Program-made: the position numbers and the translations under genes
Notes under the pieces: generated by a model
Told to the model about the DNA's origin: nothing
What the model saw: the letters and a program-made list of their open reading frames with translations, nothing else
Databases searched by the model: none
Shown here: in pieces, positions 16,487-64,000 of the stretch
How the letters are laid out: the number at the start of each line of letters is the position of its first letter
Numbering within the stretch: position 1 is the stretch's first letter
Virus genome (UHGV): UHGV-2113617
Source of the DNA: a virus
Reading direction: 5' to 3' (one strand)
Length of the DNA: 64,000 nucleotides

Positions 16487-17089
16487 TTATAGATTAAATC
16501 CTTCAAAGTCAAGAGTATAGATAGTGTATGTTGAATACTTTTTATACTCATATCTATCCGCAATTCTAAATACACTTCCAGCTGGTATCATTACTTCTTG
16601 TTCATCTGAAACTAATTCCATATTACGATAGCGATGGCTATCTGGAAACTTAAAACTTGGACTATATTCTTTACAACGTAGAGCTTTTATAGCATACTCC
16701 TGGAAATTAAATACCATAGGAGCTTTGAATTCAAAAATAACTTGCGTGTTGTATTCTAATCCAGAAGCAAAATGTAGAGCTATATTTTTATCATATGAAG
16801 CTGATACTACTTTATCAAATGTAATAATATCAATTCCTTGATTTAACACCTGCTTAGTCTCAACTGGAACACCTCTCCAAAGAGGTTTATCGTTTGGTTC
16901 CAAACGAGATTTGATTATTTCATTTAACCAAGAGTGGTCGTCTGGCTTATTAGTAATACAATGAATTAAAAGTTCAATTTCGGATAAATTAAATCCTTCA
17001 GAAAGTAATTCTTCACGAATAGAAGCACGCACCGATGCATCCATTGATTTGATTTTAAAATCTTTTAATTGCATTGCTGAATATTTCAT
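16487..17089 (-). CDS. modA: ADP-ribosyltransferase ModA
   Basis: 200 aa as T4 ModA; ATG 17087-17089; paralog of adjacent modB. Confidence 0.75.
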   Translation of the reverse strand: MKYSAMQLKDFKIKSMDASVRASIREELLSEGFNLSEIELLIHCITNKPDDHSWLNEIIKSRLEPNDKPLWRGVPVETKQVLNQGIDIITFDKVVSASYDKNIALHFASGLEYNTQVIFEFKAPMVFNFQEYAIKALRCKEYSPSFKFPDSHRYRNMELVSDEQEVMIPAGSVFRIADRYEYKKYSTYTIYTLDFEGFNL

Positions 17090-17709
17090 TCAACTACCTC
17101 AATATCATACACTTTAAATGTTCCAAATGAATCGTGTAATTTTTCTTTTGAAATAGAAGTTATTTTATACTTTCCAATTGGAATCATCCATTCTTGTTCA
17201 CGCACAATCATCATTAAGTTATCAGTACGTTCTGAATCTAATCCATCAGTATCTTCATATGTATACTTAAACTCAGTATTAGGAGAAGAAAGTATAATAT
17301 CGCTGATATGGTCAGAATAATTAAAAGCTTTATCAGTTTTTAAGCGAAATATTATTTCAGTGAAATATTCAGCATAAGAAAAAGAACACGCTGTGTGCAA
17401 ACTAGTAGTAAATGAATCTACCCTGTTCGTTGAAAACACTTCTCCAACTTGTAAATCTTTAATGAGCTCTTTTGTCGATTTTGATATACCACGATATAGC
17501 TGATAAGGTGATTTAGTTAAATGCTTTTTAACGATTTTATTCAACTGCCAGTGAAGAGCTTCATTCTTTTTGGCTTCCATACATTGCCAAAGAACTGACT
17601 GTTCAAAGTCAGTAAATTTTTCACAGACCTTTTTATACATATCATATTGAAAATCAACACTTTCAGCTTTTATAGATAACTGTTCAACATCTGCGAGATT
17701 AATAATCAT
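17086..17709 (-). CDS. modB: ADP-ribosyltransferase ModB
   Basis: 207 aa from ATG 17707-17709 preceded by GGAGG SD; track start at 17721 lacks an SD. Confidence 0.75.
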   Translation of the reverse strand: MIINLADVEQLSIKAESVDFQYDMYKKVCEKFTDFEQSVLWQCMEAKKNEALHWQLNKIVKKHLTKSPYQLYRGISKSTKELIKDLQVGEVFSTNRVDSFTTSLHTACSFSYAEYFTEIIFRLKTDKAFNYSDHISDIILSSPNTEFKYTYEDTDGLDSERTDNLMMIVREQEWMIPIGKYKITSISKEKLHDSFGTFKVYDIEVVE

Positions 17710-21030: not shown

Positions 21031-22055
21031 ATCTTAGCATATTTAGATAGCCGCATTTTAGCCATCAACCCTTGGGCAATATTATTTTTCATATATTCCA
21101 TAATTTGTTTAGGGGTTGCACCTTCCTTTCTAATCATATCATTAACATCTTTTGATTTCCAGGGAGATTTATCCCAAAACATAACCCTTTCTCCTGCATC
21201 AACTAATTTAGTCATTCGTTTAATAGTGTCAGGGTGACGAGGTTCATTATCTAAAACCCATACACGTCTATCTTTAAATGGAACAATTTCTAGGTCTAAT
21301 TGACCACCTGTAATAGCTATACCATTTTCAATAAAAAGTGAATCTATAGGTCCTTCTAGAACATATACATCACCATCTTTAACCCGTTCAACACCATAGA
21401 TTTTTGTTGCCTCAGGATAAGCCTTGATGGTGATATATTTTTGAGGAGCATCTTTCTTTAACGCACGTCCTTGAAAAGACTCAGCTTTTCCATTAGCATT
21501 ATAAATTGGAATAACAAGACGAGGCTCAGGTATTTCCTTTTTATATGTTCCTGGTGCTATACTATTAACTAATTTAGGCCATTCGGTTGTAAACCAAAGA
21601 TATTTCCATTTATCCTTTGGAATACAACGAGCTTTTACGTATTTTATAATTGGATGGTCTTCTGCCAGTTTATCTAATCTAATACATGACGGAAGAGATT
21701 TAATTATTTTCTTCTCAGGTTGTTTAGGAAGTTCTTTAGGTTTTTCTGCTGGACGACTTTTACCTTTTTCTTTTCTTATTTCAAAGATATACTCACGATA
21801 TAAATCGGGTTCAAACTCCTTTAAATATATTCCGATTGGTGCATGATAGTTACAGTTATAACAATGAATATTTCCTTCATTATTATCACCATAATACCAT
21901 CCACGAGCTTTATTTTGGTCGGTTTTTGAATCTCCACAAACAGGGCATCTAAACCGTAATTTAAAAGTTGAACTATTATTTACTTGTGTGAATTTAGGTA
22001 AATGAGCTAGCGCACGATATGCAAACTCATTATCAATCCAAGGTATTGATGACAT
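21027..22055 (-). CDS. 61: DNA primase (zinc ribbon plus TOPRIM)
   Basis: 342 aa as T4 gp61; ATG 22053-22055; CPVCGDSKTD...HCYNCNYH zinc finger. Confidence 0.9.
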   Translation of the reverse strand: MSSIPWIDNEFAYRALAHLPKFTQVNNSSTFKLRFRCPVCGDSKTDQNKARGWYYGDNNEGNIHCYNCNYHAPIGIYLKEFEPDLYREYIFEIRKEKGKSRPAEKPKELPKQPEKKIIKSLPSCIRLDKLAEDHPIIKYVKARCIPKDKWKYLWFTTEWPKLVNSIAPGTYKKEIPEPRLVIPIYNANGKAESFQGRALKKDAPQKYITIKAYPEATKIYGVERVKDGDVYVLEGPIDSLFIENGIAITGGQLDLEIVPFKDRRVWVLDNEPRHPDTIKRMTKLVDAGERVMFWDKSPWKSKDVNDMIRKEGATPKQIMEYMKNNIAQGLMAKMRLSKYAKI

Positions 22056-22058
22056 TTT

Positions 22059-22223
22059 TTACTCTTCTTTTTCTTTAGATTCCTCTTTTTTCTTTTTAGG
22101 AATCTGTTCAGGACCTTTATTTACTACAGCGCCTGACGTTGTTCCAGTAGAGATATTTTCAGGATTACCACCTGAATCTCCAGCTACCATATCTTCTTTA
22201 ATAAATTCTTTAAACGTTTTCAT
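22059..22223 (-). CDS. hypothetical small protein (54 aa), 61.1 position
   Basis: Manual translation MKTFKEFIKEDMVAGDSGGNPENISTG...KKKKEESKEKEE; GAGG SD; below track cutoff. Confidence 0.35.
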   Translation of the reverse strand: MKTFKEFIKEDMVAGDSGGNPENISTGTTSGAVVNKGPEQIPKKKKEESKEKEE

Positions 22224-22235
22224 ATTAGCCTCTAA

Positions 22236-22529
22236 TTATTCACCTACCACTTCAGCGATGATATTTTTATTATTGAAGTTTTTATCACAATACAGAACGT
22301 AATTATACTGCATTACACCACCAGACTTAAGTTGTTTTTGTACTTCAGCTTTCATTTCAGGGCGATCACGCTCAACGATATTCATAATATCTGCTTCAAT
22401 CTGAGTTTCAACCTCAGTCTGATCTGCAGTCATAGACCATTCACACAAATCTTTGTCATAACCCGCCATAGCAGGCTGGGCAGCACAAGAAGATAAAGCA
22501 AAAATTGCAGCAAAGATAAATTTTTTCAT
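22236..22529 (-). CDS. sp: periplasmic Spackle-like protein
   Basis: 97 aa as T4 Sp; signal peptide MKKFIFAAIFALSSCAAQPAMA; AGGAG SD. Confidence 0.7.
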   Translation of the reverse strand: MKKFIFAAIFALSSCAAQPAMAGYDKDLCEWSMTADQTEVETQIEADIMNIVERDRPEMKAEVQKQLKSGGVMQYNYVLYCDKNFNNKNIIAEVVGE

Positions 22530-22589
22530 GATAATCTCCTCAGTAGTTTATGTTTATATAGTATCTCAATTTCCAATAAAAGTAAACAA

Positions 22590-60596: not shown

Positions 60597-60809
60597 TCAT
60601 TTTTGTCCTGTATTTACTTTATGCCGATGCACGGCCTTAACTTTATCAAGGCATTTTTCAAAATTTCGCAATCTAGTATAGTCTGCCGGAGATTGGTTGA
60701 GTGATACTTCTCGACGCAAAGCTGAAATGATATTTCCAACTTCCCTACGAATTTCATCTAATTGAAGAACAGTAAGATTGCGAAGTTGCTTTTCAGTTAA
60801 TTGTAGCAT
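60597..60809 (-). CDS. hypothetical protein (rI.1 position)
   Basis: ORF track 70 aa. Confidence 0.5.
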
Positions 60810-60851
60810 ATATACCCCTTTAGTTAGATAAACCTATTTATAACTTTTGCA

Positions 60852-61433
60852 CTAACCGAGCTTTTTAGTTAATTCATTCCAATGTTTTCTACACAAAGAA
60901 ACATAAATTTCATCACCAATACAGATTTGATTACCTTCTTTAACTGGCGTTCCATCTTCCATTAATCGAGCTGTCATAATCGCTTTTTTACCGCAATGAC
61001 AAACTGCCTTTAGTTCAATAAGTTTATCTGCAATCGCCAAAAGTTCTTTAGAACCTTCAAATAATTTTCCAGCGAAATCAGTCCTTAGACCATAAGCCAT
61101 AACAGGAACATTATATGCATCGACAATTCGGCTTAATTGATGTACCTGTTCAGTTTTTAAAAACTGAGCTTCATCTACAAATACGCAATGAATATCTTTT
61201 TGTGCTTCAGCCCATTTATAGAACTCAAAAATATCCATATCATCCGTAATAATATTCGCTTCCTGCTTAATTCCAATGCGAGAAACGACTTCACAGACAG
61301 AATCGCGAGTATCAATAGCAGGCTTAAGAACTAATACACTCATTCCACGTTCTTTATAATTATGCGCAGCAGTCAAAAGAGAAGCAGATTTTCCAGCATT
61401 CATTGCTGCATAAGTAAAAATTAAACTCGCCAT
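60852..61433 (-). CDS. tk: thymidine kinase
   Basis: 193 aa; P-loop AAMNAGKS; ATG 61431-61433. Confidence 0.9.
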   Translation of the reverse strand: MASLIFTYAAMNAGKSASLLTAAHNYKERGMSVLVLKPAIDTRDSVCEVVSRIGIKQEANIITDDMDIFEFYKWAEAQKDIHCVFVDEAQFLKTEQVHQLSRIVDAYNVPVMAYGLRTDFAGKLFEGSKELLAIADKLIELKAVCHCGKKAIMTARLMEDGTPVKEGNQICIGDEIYVSLCRKHWNELTKKLG

Positions 61434-61442
61434 ATCACCTTC

Positions 61443-61628
61443 TTAAAGCGTATTCACATAAGCTATTAATTCGTTTTCTTTCTTATCAAACCGATCAGCA
61501 AATTCTTCCTGGTGTTCGGGAGATAGCGGGCCGTATTCATCATAAAAGGTGTTTGCTTCTGTATGCTCATCTAGAAGTTCATGGATAAGCTCAAACAATT
61601 TATCTTTTTGTTCTTTACTCAGACTCAT
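61443..61628 (-). CDS. hypothetical protein
   Basis: ORF track 61 aa. Confidence 0.45.
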   Translation of the reverse strand: MSLSKEQKDKLFELIHELLDEHTEANTFYDEYGPLSPEHQEEFADRFDKKENELIAYVNTL

Positions 61629-61798
61629 ATATTAATTTCCAGAAGTTTTAAAATAATTCGCTTTTGCTTAAATATTTCCATAGTTAAATGATCAGTATCT
61701 TTTTGACCAATTCCAATGGCAAAACCTTTATTAACAGCGAGTTCAATTAAATTATCAAGTTCACGTAACACTTCATATTGTAACTCAAAACTATTCAT
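61625..61798 (-). CDS. hypothetical small protein (57 aa)
   Basis: Manual translation MNSFELQYEVLRELDNLIELAVNKGFAIG; ATGA overlaps at both ends. Confidence 0.35.
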   Translation of the reverse strand: MNSFELQYEVLRELDNLIELAVNKGFAIGIGQKDTDHLTMEIFKQKRIILKLLEINI

Positions 61799-62001
61799 TT
61801 TGGTTTACCTTCTTTAACGAAATCAGGATAAGGATAAAATCCTGAATAAAATCCTTCGCCTTTATGATTGATGCATCCTTTATTAGAGCAATAGCACCAA
61901 TAATCGAAATCACAAGCCATTTCATCATTGCATAAAGCAAAAACAACTGGCCATTTACACTTTTCACAATGTGCATTTTTAAGAATGCTAGTTTGGCTCA
62001 T
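61795..62001 (-). CDS. Cys-rich small protein (probable zinc-binding)
   Basis: 68 aa from ATG 61999-62001; CEKCKW...CNDEMACDFDYWCYCSNKGC. Confidence 0.45.
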   Translation of the reverse strand: MSQTSILKNAHCEKCKWPVVFALCNDEMACDFDYWCYCSNKGCINHKGEGFYSGFYPYPDFVKEGKPK

Positions 62002-62210
62002 AACCATGTAACCTTTAAGCAATATTCTTCTACATGCTGTTTACGACCTTTCTTATCAATAAAGGTATATTCAACGAATGTTCCAATATAGTCTTTATCT
62101 ACATCATGTGGACTATTAATTGGGCATTTAGTACGGCAAATGCGTTCCCATTGACGAATAATTTCCACTTTGTTTTTAGGATCAAACGGATGCGGGTAAT
62201 GTGCTTTCAT
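61998..62210 (-). CDS. hypothetical protein
   Basis: ORF track 70 aa. Confidence 0.45.
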   Translation of the reverse strand: MKAHYPHPFDPKNKVEIIRQWERICRTKCPINSPHDVDKDYIGTFVEYTFIDKKGRKQHVEEYCLKVTWL

Positions 62211-62661
62211 AATCCACCACTATTAAATCAATATCAGGAGTAAACATGTCGATTAATTTAGAAACCTTATCCCAATCACCGCCAGCAATACCACAACCTA
62301 TGCGTGGAATGTAAATTACTGGTTTAAACAAAAGGGTTTCTGCCTGTAGATTTAATTCTATCATGCAGTTTACTAAAGCACCATAATCAAGATTAGGACC
62401 CGGTTCGTATTGTGTATACAGGTTATAGCATATACCAAATCCCGTAGGATTATGTTTAAAAACAATAGACATATCGCCTAGTTTATCACGAGAACCGTAC
62501 TCAGTAGTGGTTTTATCTATTTCTAAAATTTTAGGATAGGCCCTTGCTAATTGACCTGCTACACCTGAACCCATAGTATGAAAACAATTGCATCCGTGCG
62601 CAATAATATTACCTTGAAGAAATAGGGCGACAATATCGCCCTTGATATATTTTACAATCAT
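62182..62661 (-). CDS. macro-domain protein (putative ADP-ribose binding or hydrolase)
   Basis: 159 aa; GDIVA...IAHGCNC...GSGVAGQL and RIGCGIAGGDW motifs. Confidence 0.6.
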   Translation of the reverse strand: MIVKYIKGDIVALFLQGNIIAHGCNCFHTMGSGVAGQLARAYPKILEIDKTTTEYGSRDKLGDMSIVFKHNPTGFGICYNLYTQYEPGPNLDYGALVNCMIELNLQAETLLFKPVIYIPRIGCGIAGGDWDKVSKLIDMFTPDIDLIVVDYESTLPASV

Positions 62662-62999
62662 CTAGTACTCAATCCTCGATTATAAGAATCTACCAAACGG
62701 TCAACCATTGAATGACAAGCGGCTTTATCTTTCTCCTCCGCAACTGAACATTCTAAGGTATTCCACTTTTTAGCATATCGTTTTAATAAAGTATCATTTT
62801 TGTATCTGCTTGATTTATCTCTTTCTCCGTCTTTATATGCATATATTAATTTCTGCGCAAATTCAGCTTGACATGCTTTATTTTTCCCACAATAATCTGC
62901 GGCAGTACGGTTTACATACTCTCTAATTTCAGTGTATGATGTATTTGCTAACGCAGAAAATGAAATTAATCCTACACATAAAACCAAAATTTTAGTCAT
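62658..62999 (-). CDS. secreted protein (vs position)
   Basis: 113 aa; signal peptide MTKILVLCVGLISFSALA. Confidence 0.5.
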   Translation of the reverse strand: MTKILVLCVGLISFSALANTSYTEIREYVNRTAADYCGKNKACQAEFAQKLIYAYKDGERDKSSRYKNDTLLKRYAKKWNTLECSVAEEKDKAACHSMVDRLVDSYNRGLSTR

Positions 63000-63537
63000 T
63001 TACTATTTCCAACAGTTTATTATTTTTAAGGTAGTTAGCCTTTTCTAGGACTTCAGAAGCATATTTAGAACCTGCTTTAACATTCCATCCCGAATTATAA
63101 GAGGATATTGCCTTTCTTATATCGCCCTTATGTATATTTAACCAATAAGAAAGTTCAATGTACGCCCAGGAAGCTGAATTGGACCGTTTATTCAACATTC
63201 TTTTTATTTCAGCATCGGTCATATTATAACCAAGTTCCTTAACTCTTGCTCGCATGGTCGGCAAATAATTTTGGAACATTCCATAGGCATGATGCTTTGG
63301 TTTAGATTTTAAATTAACTCCGGCAGAGCTTTCTTGCCATAAAATAGCAGCCATTATATGACCTAATCCACTCTTGTGGATATTTTTGTGTGTTTTATAT
63401 TTTCCATCCTTAGAAAATTGTTCCCCGAATTGATATGCGTAACGCATGTTATCGAGTTGGACATTACTGAAAGTATGCTCGGAGCTATGTGCCATCATTG
63501 AAATGGCCAATAGACCAGCGAGTAGTGCTTTTCTCAT
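62992..63537 (-). CDS. periplasmic lytic transglycosylase-like protein (SLT domain; vs.1 position)
   Basis: 181 aa; signal peptide; AAILWQESS catalytic-Glu motif. Confidence 0.6.
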   Translation of the reverse strand: MRKALLAGLLAISMMAHSSEHTFSNVQLDNMRYAYQFGEQFSKDGKYKTHKNIHKSGLGHIMAAILWQESSAGVNLKSKPKHHAYGMFQNYLPTMRARVKELGYNMTDAEIKRMLNKRSNSASWAYIELSYWLNIHKGDIRKAISSYNSGWNVKAGSKYASEVLEKANYLKNNKLLEIVND

Positions 63538-63544
63538 GCTTACC

Positions 63545-64000
63545 TCATTGAGTTTTAATTACTGCTTTAGAAGCCTTTCCTGGTAAACGACGACTGTTGA
63601 TAATTGCCATCCTGCACTGAAGTGACGGGTCTTTGAACTTCTCGTTAGGTTTACAAACTGTAAATCCAAGCCAAAGATTTCCATCTGTGATTTCTAAACG
63701 CCCAGGACGATATTCAACCCCATCAATAAAATCCTCATTAATGTCAGGACGCGGAGGCATACTCAGGAATTCATTAACTTCTAAAACATGGTCTTTTATT
63801 TTGTGGAATAATTCAAAAACATATGTCTCATCAATCTCCCGTTGAATTGCACGATCAAGAAGATGCTGAGAATATTTTAGATGAAACGATGAGACCCCTG
63901 CTGCTTTTGATGCCTCACGAATCTCATTGTTAATTTGACGAAACTCCGACTCAAAGTGACGACGGAGCTTATTTCGACGGATAAAAACTTCTGTGTTGAT
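63545..64000 (-). CDS. regB: endoribonuclease RegB; 5' end runs about 2 codons beyond window end
   Basis: Frame open from 63545 to window edge; INTEVFIRRNKLRRHFESEFRQ...KTQ; the 71-aa track ORF is its C-terminal part. Confidence 0.75.
   Translation of the reverse strand: MNTEVFIRRNKLRRHFESEFRQINNEIREASKAAGVSSFHLKYSQHLLDRAIQREIDETYVFELFHKIKDHVLEVNEFLSMPPRPDINEDFIDGVEYRPGRLEITDGNLWLGFTVCKPNEKFKDPSLQCRMAIINSRRLPGKASKAVIKTQ

Follow-up and report, generated by a model that had tools for sequence, protein, structure and literature searches.

We examined a 64,000-nucleotide stretch of the virus genome UHGV-2113617, referred to below as the window, and describe here a 159-residue open reading frame (ORF) within it whose product is a macrodomain protein and which corresponds to tk.4 of bacteriophage T4, a gene also named adfM. 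The DNA at positions 60800-63800 is 98-99% identical to that of many Tequatrovirus (T4-like) genomes, and the genes lie in the order rI.-1, rI, rI.1, tk, small ORFs, tk.3, tk.4, vs, vs.1 and regB; because this order matches that of T4, the ORF at 62182..62661 is the counterpart of T4 tk.4 (Table 1). An earlier note, made from the sequence alone, had drawn attention to this ORF and to the motifs GDIVA, HGCNCFHTMGSGVAGQL and RIGCGIAGGDW, all of which are present in the translation, and had placed it between tk and a vs-like gene; the vs-like gene does adjoin it, but the immediate neighbor on the other side is tk.3, with tk four small genes further on.

Table 1. Features of the window, with protein identities to the T4 and JS98 counterparts
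Feature	Position	Strand	Basis or remark	Identity to T4	Identity to JS98
tk.4/adfM orthologue, 159-aa stand-alone macrodomain protein, ALC1-like class	62182..62661	-	ATG start, ORF listing	58%	93%
First ADP-ribose-binding (catalytic) loop, codons 22-37, HGCNCFHTMGSGVAGQ	62551..62598	-	translation, family conservation, alignment		
NLYTQ, codons 80-84	62410..62424	-	N80, Y82, Q84 invariant		
Glycine-rich phosphate-binding loop, codons 119-130, PRIGCGIAGGDW	62272..62307	-	translation, alignments		
Perfect 8-bp GC-rich hairpin AGGGCGATATTGTCGCCCT, codons 7-13 of tk.4	62624..62642	-	terminator-like scan		
ATGA overlap, tk.4 start/vs stop	62658..62661	-	AGATGA in sequence, ORF coordinates		
29-nt overlap, tk.4 3′ end/tk.3 start	62182..62210	-	ORF coordinates		
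regB				99%	59%
vs.1				99%	68%
vs homologue	62658-62999			96%	44%
tk.3 homologue	61998-62210	-	70-aa ORF	93%	76%
tk.2				54%	89%
tk	60852-61433		tk.4 four small genes upstream	99%	70%
modA ADP-ribosyltransferase	~16487-17089	-	tblastn with T4 ModA	97%	
modB ADP-ribosyltransferase	~17086-17709	-	tblastn with T4 ModB	97%	

T4 Tk.4 (AdfM, NP_049723) is likewise encoded between vs and tk.3 and is 155 rather than 159 residues long, the window protein having four additional C-terminal residues; the two align over 155 amino acids without gaps (58% identity, E=1e-70 by BLASTP) and fall in one orthologous group. The closer relative is the protein of Dhakavirus JS98 (YP_001595233, 'phosphatase; A1pp motif'), which has the same 159-residue length and 93% amino acid identity even though JS98 belongs to a different genus and the genes on either side show no more than 44-76% identity to those of the window. 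The overlap of the tk.4 start with the vs stop suggests translational coupling within one transcription unit, and the 29-nt overlap at the other end of the gene is also present in JS98, whereas in T4 only 4 nt are shared. Several GenBank records (for example PV390659.2, 4383-4775) give instead a 130-residue reading from Met30, which we reject; the start codon was probably misassigned, since such a protein would lack strand 1 as well as the invariant catalytic loop H22-C26.

The assignment to the macrodomains is secure. The protein matches the Pfam Macro profile (PF01661) at 33.1 bits (gathering cut-off 22; E=5.8e-8) over profile positions 2-117 of 118, and PHROG 335 ('phosphatase') with E=1.6e-71; database searching reveals 779 homologues, the best with E=5e-102, and macrodomains of the Tk.4 family are present in 2778 phage records, including 184 of Pseudomonas, 137 of Vibrio, 93 of Acinetobacter and 86 of Aeromonas phages. 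The match is far beyond chance, and this is not a chance ORF. An AlphaFold2 model built with 60 homologues as input (predicted local distance difference test [pLDDT] 93.6; predicted template modeling score [pTM] 0.88) shows the alpha/beta/alpha macro fold in three layers, and the two glycine-rich loops for ADP-ribose binding are intact. Known structures compared with Tk.4 give figures of 18.3 for BT1257, 17.8 for the Mycobacterium tuberculosis DarG macrodomain, 17.3 for Poa1p, 16.9 for TARG1, 16.8 for T. africanus DarTG and 13.7 for the next in line (coronavirus and other macrodomains). Foldseek recovers the same set of structures, with TARG1 having the top E-value (8e-10), and a family profile run against PDB sequences finds BT1257 (1e-18), TARG1 (3e-17), SCO6735 (7e-15), Poa1p (3e-14) and DarG (8e-12 and 8e-10). 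These nearest neighbors in sequence and structure belong to the ALC1-like class, apart from MacroD, PARG and macroH2A, and the window protein is a minimal stand-alone macrodomain of that class, which includes TARG1, DarG, SCO6735 and Poa1p. That tk.4 orthologues encode an A1pp/macro domain was described in 2006 (PMC1524935), and RefSeq names both the T4 and JS98 proteins 'phosphatase; contains A1pp phosphatase motif'.

Residue conservation was assessed in 119 homologues extending down to ~40% identity and in a set of 61 sequences. H22, G23, N25, C26, G33, A35, D49, N80, Y82, Q84, P119 and W130 are invariant in 119/119, and G122 and G124 are found in 118 of the 119 and in every member of the smaller set; the window protein and T4 Tk.4 have all 14 of these family-invariant residues in common. 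The two differ in the phosphate-binding loop, where T4 has GAGIGKGNW in place of GCGIAGGDW (IGAGIGKGNW in place of IGCGIAGGDW when the preceding residue is included); the window allele matches the family consensus here and the T4 sequence, PRIGAGIGKGNW, deviates from it. Because PRIGCGIAGGDW is the consensus form, the window allele is, on its sequence, at least as likely to be active as that of T4.

The positions of presumptive catalytic importance were mapped by profile alignment to TARG1 and by a MAFFT alignment with BT1257, SCO6735, TARG1, two DarG macrodomains (5M3I of M. tuberculosis and 5M31 of T. aquaticus) and PhiKZ gp104. Both alignments place Q84 opposite TARG1 K84, DarG K80 and SCO6735 Q85; A126 aligns with TARG1 D125, and N25 with SCO6735 N27 and with N23 of the PhiKZ protein. 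The Lys84/Asp125 dyad of TARG1 is therefore not found in the window protein in either alignment, Gln84 and Ala126 standing in its place, and neither is the catalytic lysine of DarG (K80, in the motif FPTK), where NLYTQ is aligned and Gln occupies the Lys position. With no lysine at this position, the protein cannot use the lysine-based chemistry by which TARG1 and DarG work. What it does contain, invariant throughout the family, is the Gln and Asn pair of the SCO6735/BT1257 subclass (Q85 and N27 in SCO6735), as Q84 and N25. The earlier note had stated that a lack of catalytic-site residues in such alignments would refute its macrodomain proposal; those of the TARG1/DarG type are missing but the Gln and Asn that are essential in SCO6735 are in place, and the proposal is not refuted. 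SCO6735 removes ADP-ribose from thymidine in DNA, an activity abolished by Q85A and nearly abolished by N27S; it clears ADP-ribosyl-thymidine DNA faster than DarG or TARG1, is inactive on guanine adducts, and both rescues Escherichia coli from DarT and inhibits DarT by binding (PMC9411070). In PhiKZ, the N23A substitution lowers DNA de-ADP-ribosylation (PMC13309987).

The relationship to these enzymes is not a simple one. SCO6735 of Streptomyces coelicolor (5E3B) and BT1257 of Bacteroides (2FG1/2AFC) are of the Gln type and stand alone, like the window protein, and are ~26-29% identical to it. It has Gly23 where SCO6735 has Val25, however, together with invariant residues of its own (C26, D49, N80 and Y82), and the long mobile loop of the SCO6735/BT1257 subclass was not found, the MAFFT alignment showing a gap of 6 residues relative to BT1257 and 5 relative to SCO6735. 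The loop is instead of the same length as in TARG1 and DarG, and the phage protein is thus not a plain member of the SCO6735 subclass. Human TARG1/OARD1, which removes thymine and uracil ADP-ribose, is a minimal macrodomain of similar length in which the loop following the catalytic position is likewise short, and has Ser at the position of Asn25. The C-terminal half of yeast Poa1p (6LFQ) is poorly alignable with the window protein by sequence; Poa1p is a eukaryotic metabolic enzyme, an ADP-ribose-1''-phosphate phosphatase, and its documented substrate differs from the one proposed below for Tk.4.

We also considered whether tk.4 is a captured darG gene or 'orphan antitoxin', and reject this on the grounds of weak DarG scores, the missing catalytic lysine, a closer resemblance to BT1257 and TARG1, and a homologue that occurs without darT. 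The PADLOC DarG model gives 27.7 bits for the window protein, 36 for T4 Tk.4 and 133 for PhiKZ gp104; the NCBIfam DarG equivalog gives the window protein 27.8 bits against a cut-off of 250, covering model positions 2-142 of 338 (the macrodomain part); and the match to M. tuberculosis DarG has E=4.8e-5, compared with 9e-25 for PhiKZ gp104. No darT was found beside tk.4, whose neighbors are vs and tk.3. In the one bacterial locus examined, that of Pelagimonas, the homologue stands by itself in a housekeeping neighborhood and no darT lies close to it, and this single example speaks against the family having arisen recently from a DarTG operon. PhiKZ gp104 was independently named AdfM in 2026 (Cell Reports; PMC13309987), and it is DarG-like and retains the FPTK lysine, in contrast to T4 Tk.4, which carries the same name but is Gln-type and resembles BT1257 and TARG1. 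As far as sequence comparison can tell, the one name AdfM covers two different macrodomain lineages.

A role for this gene in T4 has already been established by genetics. A HIDEN-SEQ preprint of November 2025 describes the growth of a T4 transposon library on a DarTG2 host, from which tk.4 emerged as the sole significant hit; a clean deletion made T4 sensitive to DarTG2, and the gene was named adfM, for anti-DarT factor macrodomain (10.1101/2025.11.20.689424). T4 lacking both adfA and adfN is still DarTG2-resistant (PMC11825919), so that a further anti-DarTG2 factor was to be expected, and tk.4 filled this gap. The T2 protein, which is identical to that of T4, has been detected in the proteomes of infected cells. 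The suggestion of the earlier note that the macrodomain might counter host ADP-ribosylating defences, among which it named DarTG, agrees well with these findings on the T4 orthologue.

Our interpretation, to which we assign a probability of roughly 0.65, is that the window ORF is an orthologue of T4 tk.4 (adfM), present as a divergent JS98-type allele, and that its product removes DarT2-made ADP-ribose from phage DNA. Domain, fold class, orthology with synteny and the conserved residues come directly from our analysis, and the need for the gene on DarTG2 hosts from published work on the T4 protein; that this allele has the same function, acts by hydrolysis of a DNA adduct and does so by a Gln-type mechanism is inferred. 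On infection of a DarTG2 host, DarT2 would ADP-ribosylate thymidines at TNTC motifs in single-stranded DNA and thereby block phage replication; Tk.4, expressed from an early-region vs-tk.4-tk.3 transcription unit, would bind the ADP-ribose through its two glycine-rich loops and hydrolyse the thymine-ribose bond, leaving clean DNA. Catalysis would most likely be Lys-independent and of the SCO6735 type, with Gln84, held by Asn25, positioning the distal ribose for attack by a backbone-held water.

Several considerations weigh against this interpretation. The T4 protein that was tested differs from the window allele at 42% of positions, and the phenotype is that of the T4 allele only. The preprint itself goes no further than to say that enzymatic removal of ADP-ribose from DNA 'seems likely' (10.1101/2025.11.20.689424), and the protein does not have the mobile loop, longer by 5-6 residues, to which efficient handling of DNA by SCO6735 has been ascribed. 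The ALC1 reader macrodomain has the same Gln (PMC9411070), and Gln alone is therefore no proof of catalysis. Finally, a bacterial member of the family can be a stand-alone gene in a housekeeping neighborhood with no DarT nearby, so that the family may originally have acted on a different substrate.

An alternative explanation for the T4 phenotype is that Tk.4 acts mainly by binding DarT2, as a stoichiometric inhibitor or decoy, either instead of cleaning the DNA or as well as doing so; the knock-out does not distinguish the two (10.1101/2025.11.20.689424). There is precedent, as the phage anti-DarT factors AdfA and AdfB act by binding (PMC11825919), and catalytically dead SCO6735 (Q85A), DarG (K80A) and TARG1 (K84A) inhibit DarT in vitro, SCO6735 most strongly (PMC9411070). 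We think this unlikely, however, because the invariance of H22, N25, G33 and Q84 across the 119 homologues (with G122 and G124 nearly so, at 118/119) is what is expected of an enzyme, and because the C-terminal domain with which DarG binds DarT is absent from this 159-residue protein, as its NCBIfam DarG score (27.8 bits against 250) reflects.

It is also conceivable, although we judge it quite improbable, that Tk.4 processes small ADP-ribose derivatives such as ADP-ribose-1''-phosphate, O-acetyl-ADP-ribose or Thoeris-type NAD signals (the earlier note had also raised NAD-derived signals), and that the DarTG2 phenotype is a side activity. The names given in GenBank ('phosphatase; A1pp motif' or 'Poa1p-like') point in this direction, as does the match of residues 3-79 to yeast Poa1p (E=1.5e-9), with the shared motif H-x-C-N-C...G-x-G-[IV]-A-x-Q-L-A. 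A comparative-genomics survey argues that low-molecular-weight ADP-ribose derivatives are the target of most phage macrodomains, and the bacterial homologue sits in a housekeeping context. The sole functional data on the gene nonetheless point to DarTG2 (10.1101/2025.11.20.689424), and phosphatase activity is supported by no reported assay for any Tk.4 protein. T4 RNA repair (Pnkp/Rnl1) is not known to leave a 2′-phosphate that would yield Appr1p.

We are more doubtful still that Tk.4 is directed mainly at other thymine- or uracil-ADP-ribosylating toxins, at RNA adducts or at other DarT2 variants, with the Tequatrovirus allele classes differing in specificity. TARG1, DarG and SCO6735 all remove uracil ADP-ribose in RNA, and the window allele appears to have been swapped as a cassette between genera, as is typical of arms-race genes. 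Against this, the literature surveyed documents no bacterial defence that relies on an RNA-uracil ADP-ribosyltransferase, and CmdTAC, which ADP-ribosylates mRNA, is reported to defend robustly against T-even phages carrying tk.4; mRNA ADP-ribosylation is therefore evidently not countered by tk.4.

The earlier note had further proposed that the macrodomain reverses or regulates modification by ModA and ModB, both of which are indeed encoded in this genome (Table 1). The ADP-ribose linkages made by Alt, ModA and ModB are arginine N-glycosidic. The nearest characterised relatives of Tk.4 act on thymine/uracil-, Glu/Asp- or phosphate-linked ADP-ribose, and according to a review macrodomains like Tk.4 act on Glu/Asp esters, O-acetyl-ADP-ribose and phosphate esters; SCO6735 and TARG1 also strip ADP-ribose from protein Glu/Asp, and at least one arginine-specific macrodomain, Legionella MavL, is known, but the enzymes characterised as removing the arginine link are those of the ARH family (ARH1), no such cleavage is reported for the ALC1-like class, and MavL is not among any of the sequence or fold matches of Tk.4. 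By tblastn at E<=1e-5, a threshold that very distant transferases could escape, ModB-like transferases occur in 1011 phage records, nearly all of enterobacterial T-evens, compared with 2778 that carry the macrodomain; because the macrodomain is so much more widespread it is not tied to these transferases, and we rejected a coupling by co-occurrence. With the linkage chemistry mismatched, and with tk.4 scored as non-essential on plain K-12 and depleted specifically on the DarTG2 host (10.1101/2025.11.20.689424), the proposal finds no support, and it is very improbable indeed that Tk.4 reverses or tunes the phage's own Alt/ModA/ModB protein ADP-ribosylation or RNAylation.

The region behind tk is a mosaic hot spot (61446-62661), in which tk.4 and tk.2 are JS98-like and the flanks are 93-100% identical to T4. 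A JS98-like tk.4 within T4-like flanks has the appearance of a cassette that was exchanged. At the nucleotide level tk.4 matches T4 at 80-91% in its first 135 nt and at 27-71% beyond, and this drop ~135 nt into the gene suggests that the junction lies inside it. Both alleles are common in the phage collection and neither is rare, with 313 records being at least 90% identical to the window allele and 224 to that of T4. A counterpart of T4 tk.1 was not found in the window's stretch behind tk (61446-62661) when it was compared with T4 and JS98.

We put forward, tentatively and as an unlikely reading, the idea that the Tk.4 family constitutes a third mechanistic subtype of ALC1-like hydrolase, and that its T4-type and JS98-type alleles became adapted to separate DarT2 variants or to other toxins that ADP-ribosylate thymine or uracil. 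If this were so, the third subtype would combine an SCO6735-like Gln site, the short loop of TARG1 and DarG, and its own invariant C26, D49, N80 and Y82, and the tk.4 locus would be a specificity-switching counter-defence module and not one of fixed function.

The gene, its macrodomain and the anti-DarTG2 role in T4 are already known, and because they have been described the present finding adds little to them. What is added here, of interest to specialists only, is that the active site is of the Gln type, that the lineage is not that of DarG and that a cassette has apparently been exchanged with Dhakavirus. The label 'DarG homologue' for T4 AdfM hides both the missing DarG catalytic lysine and the resemblance to SCO6735, and natural T4-like phages have at least two strongly diverged tk.4 alleles, swapped between genera. 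Concrete mutants (N25A and Q84A) and allele swaps would be of use in work on DarTG counter-defence or phage host range.

The 5′ part of tk.4 contains a perfect hairpin (Table 1), followed by the T-rich tract ATTTCTTCAA and with a stability of ~-13 kcal/mol. It is built from G/C-ending codons (GGC, GTC, GCC) within AT-rich genomes, and it is present unchanged in T4 and with one loop change in JS98, though the surrounding codons differ. GenBank record OL631480.1 labels it a 'rho-independent terminator', and between vs and tk.4 it might serve as an attenuator or affect stability. A promoter scan limited to sigma-70 sites gave 12, no more than in shuffled sequence (14.2 expected).

Some departures from T4 were noted elsewhere in the window. 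A homologue of T4 gene 61.2 (adfA, an anti-DarT1 factor) was not found at ~22055-22530, where the match to gene 61.1 is limited to 42 of its 54 residues and sp comes almost immediately after it. A query with T4 dam found no match in the window, and gene 56 is only 73% identical to that of T4. The modA and modB genes lie side by side and are paralogous, with 27-29% identity between them in tblastn cross-hits; to judge from the coordinates, the stop of one overlaps the start of the other, as in T4, where a 4-nt overlap is annotated. Between tk.2 and tk.3 there are two small ORFs on the minus strand, at 61795-62022 and 61625-61798; one is a Cys-rich ORF of ~70 residues (CEKC...C..C...C.C...C), 70% identical to JS98 orf102, and the other has 57 residues. 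The automatic public names for the two conflict, and include 'rI antiholin', 'terminase small subunit' and 'tail assembly protein'.

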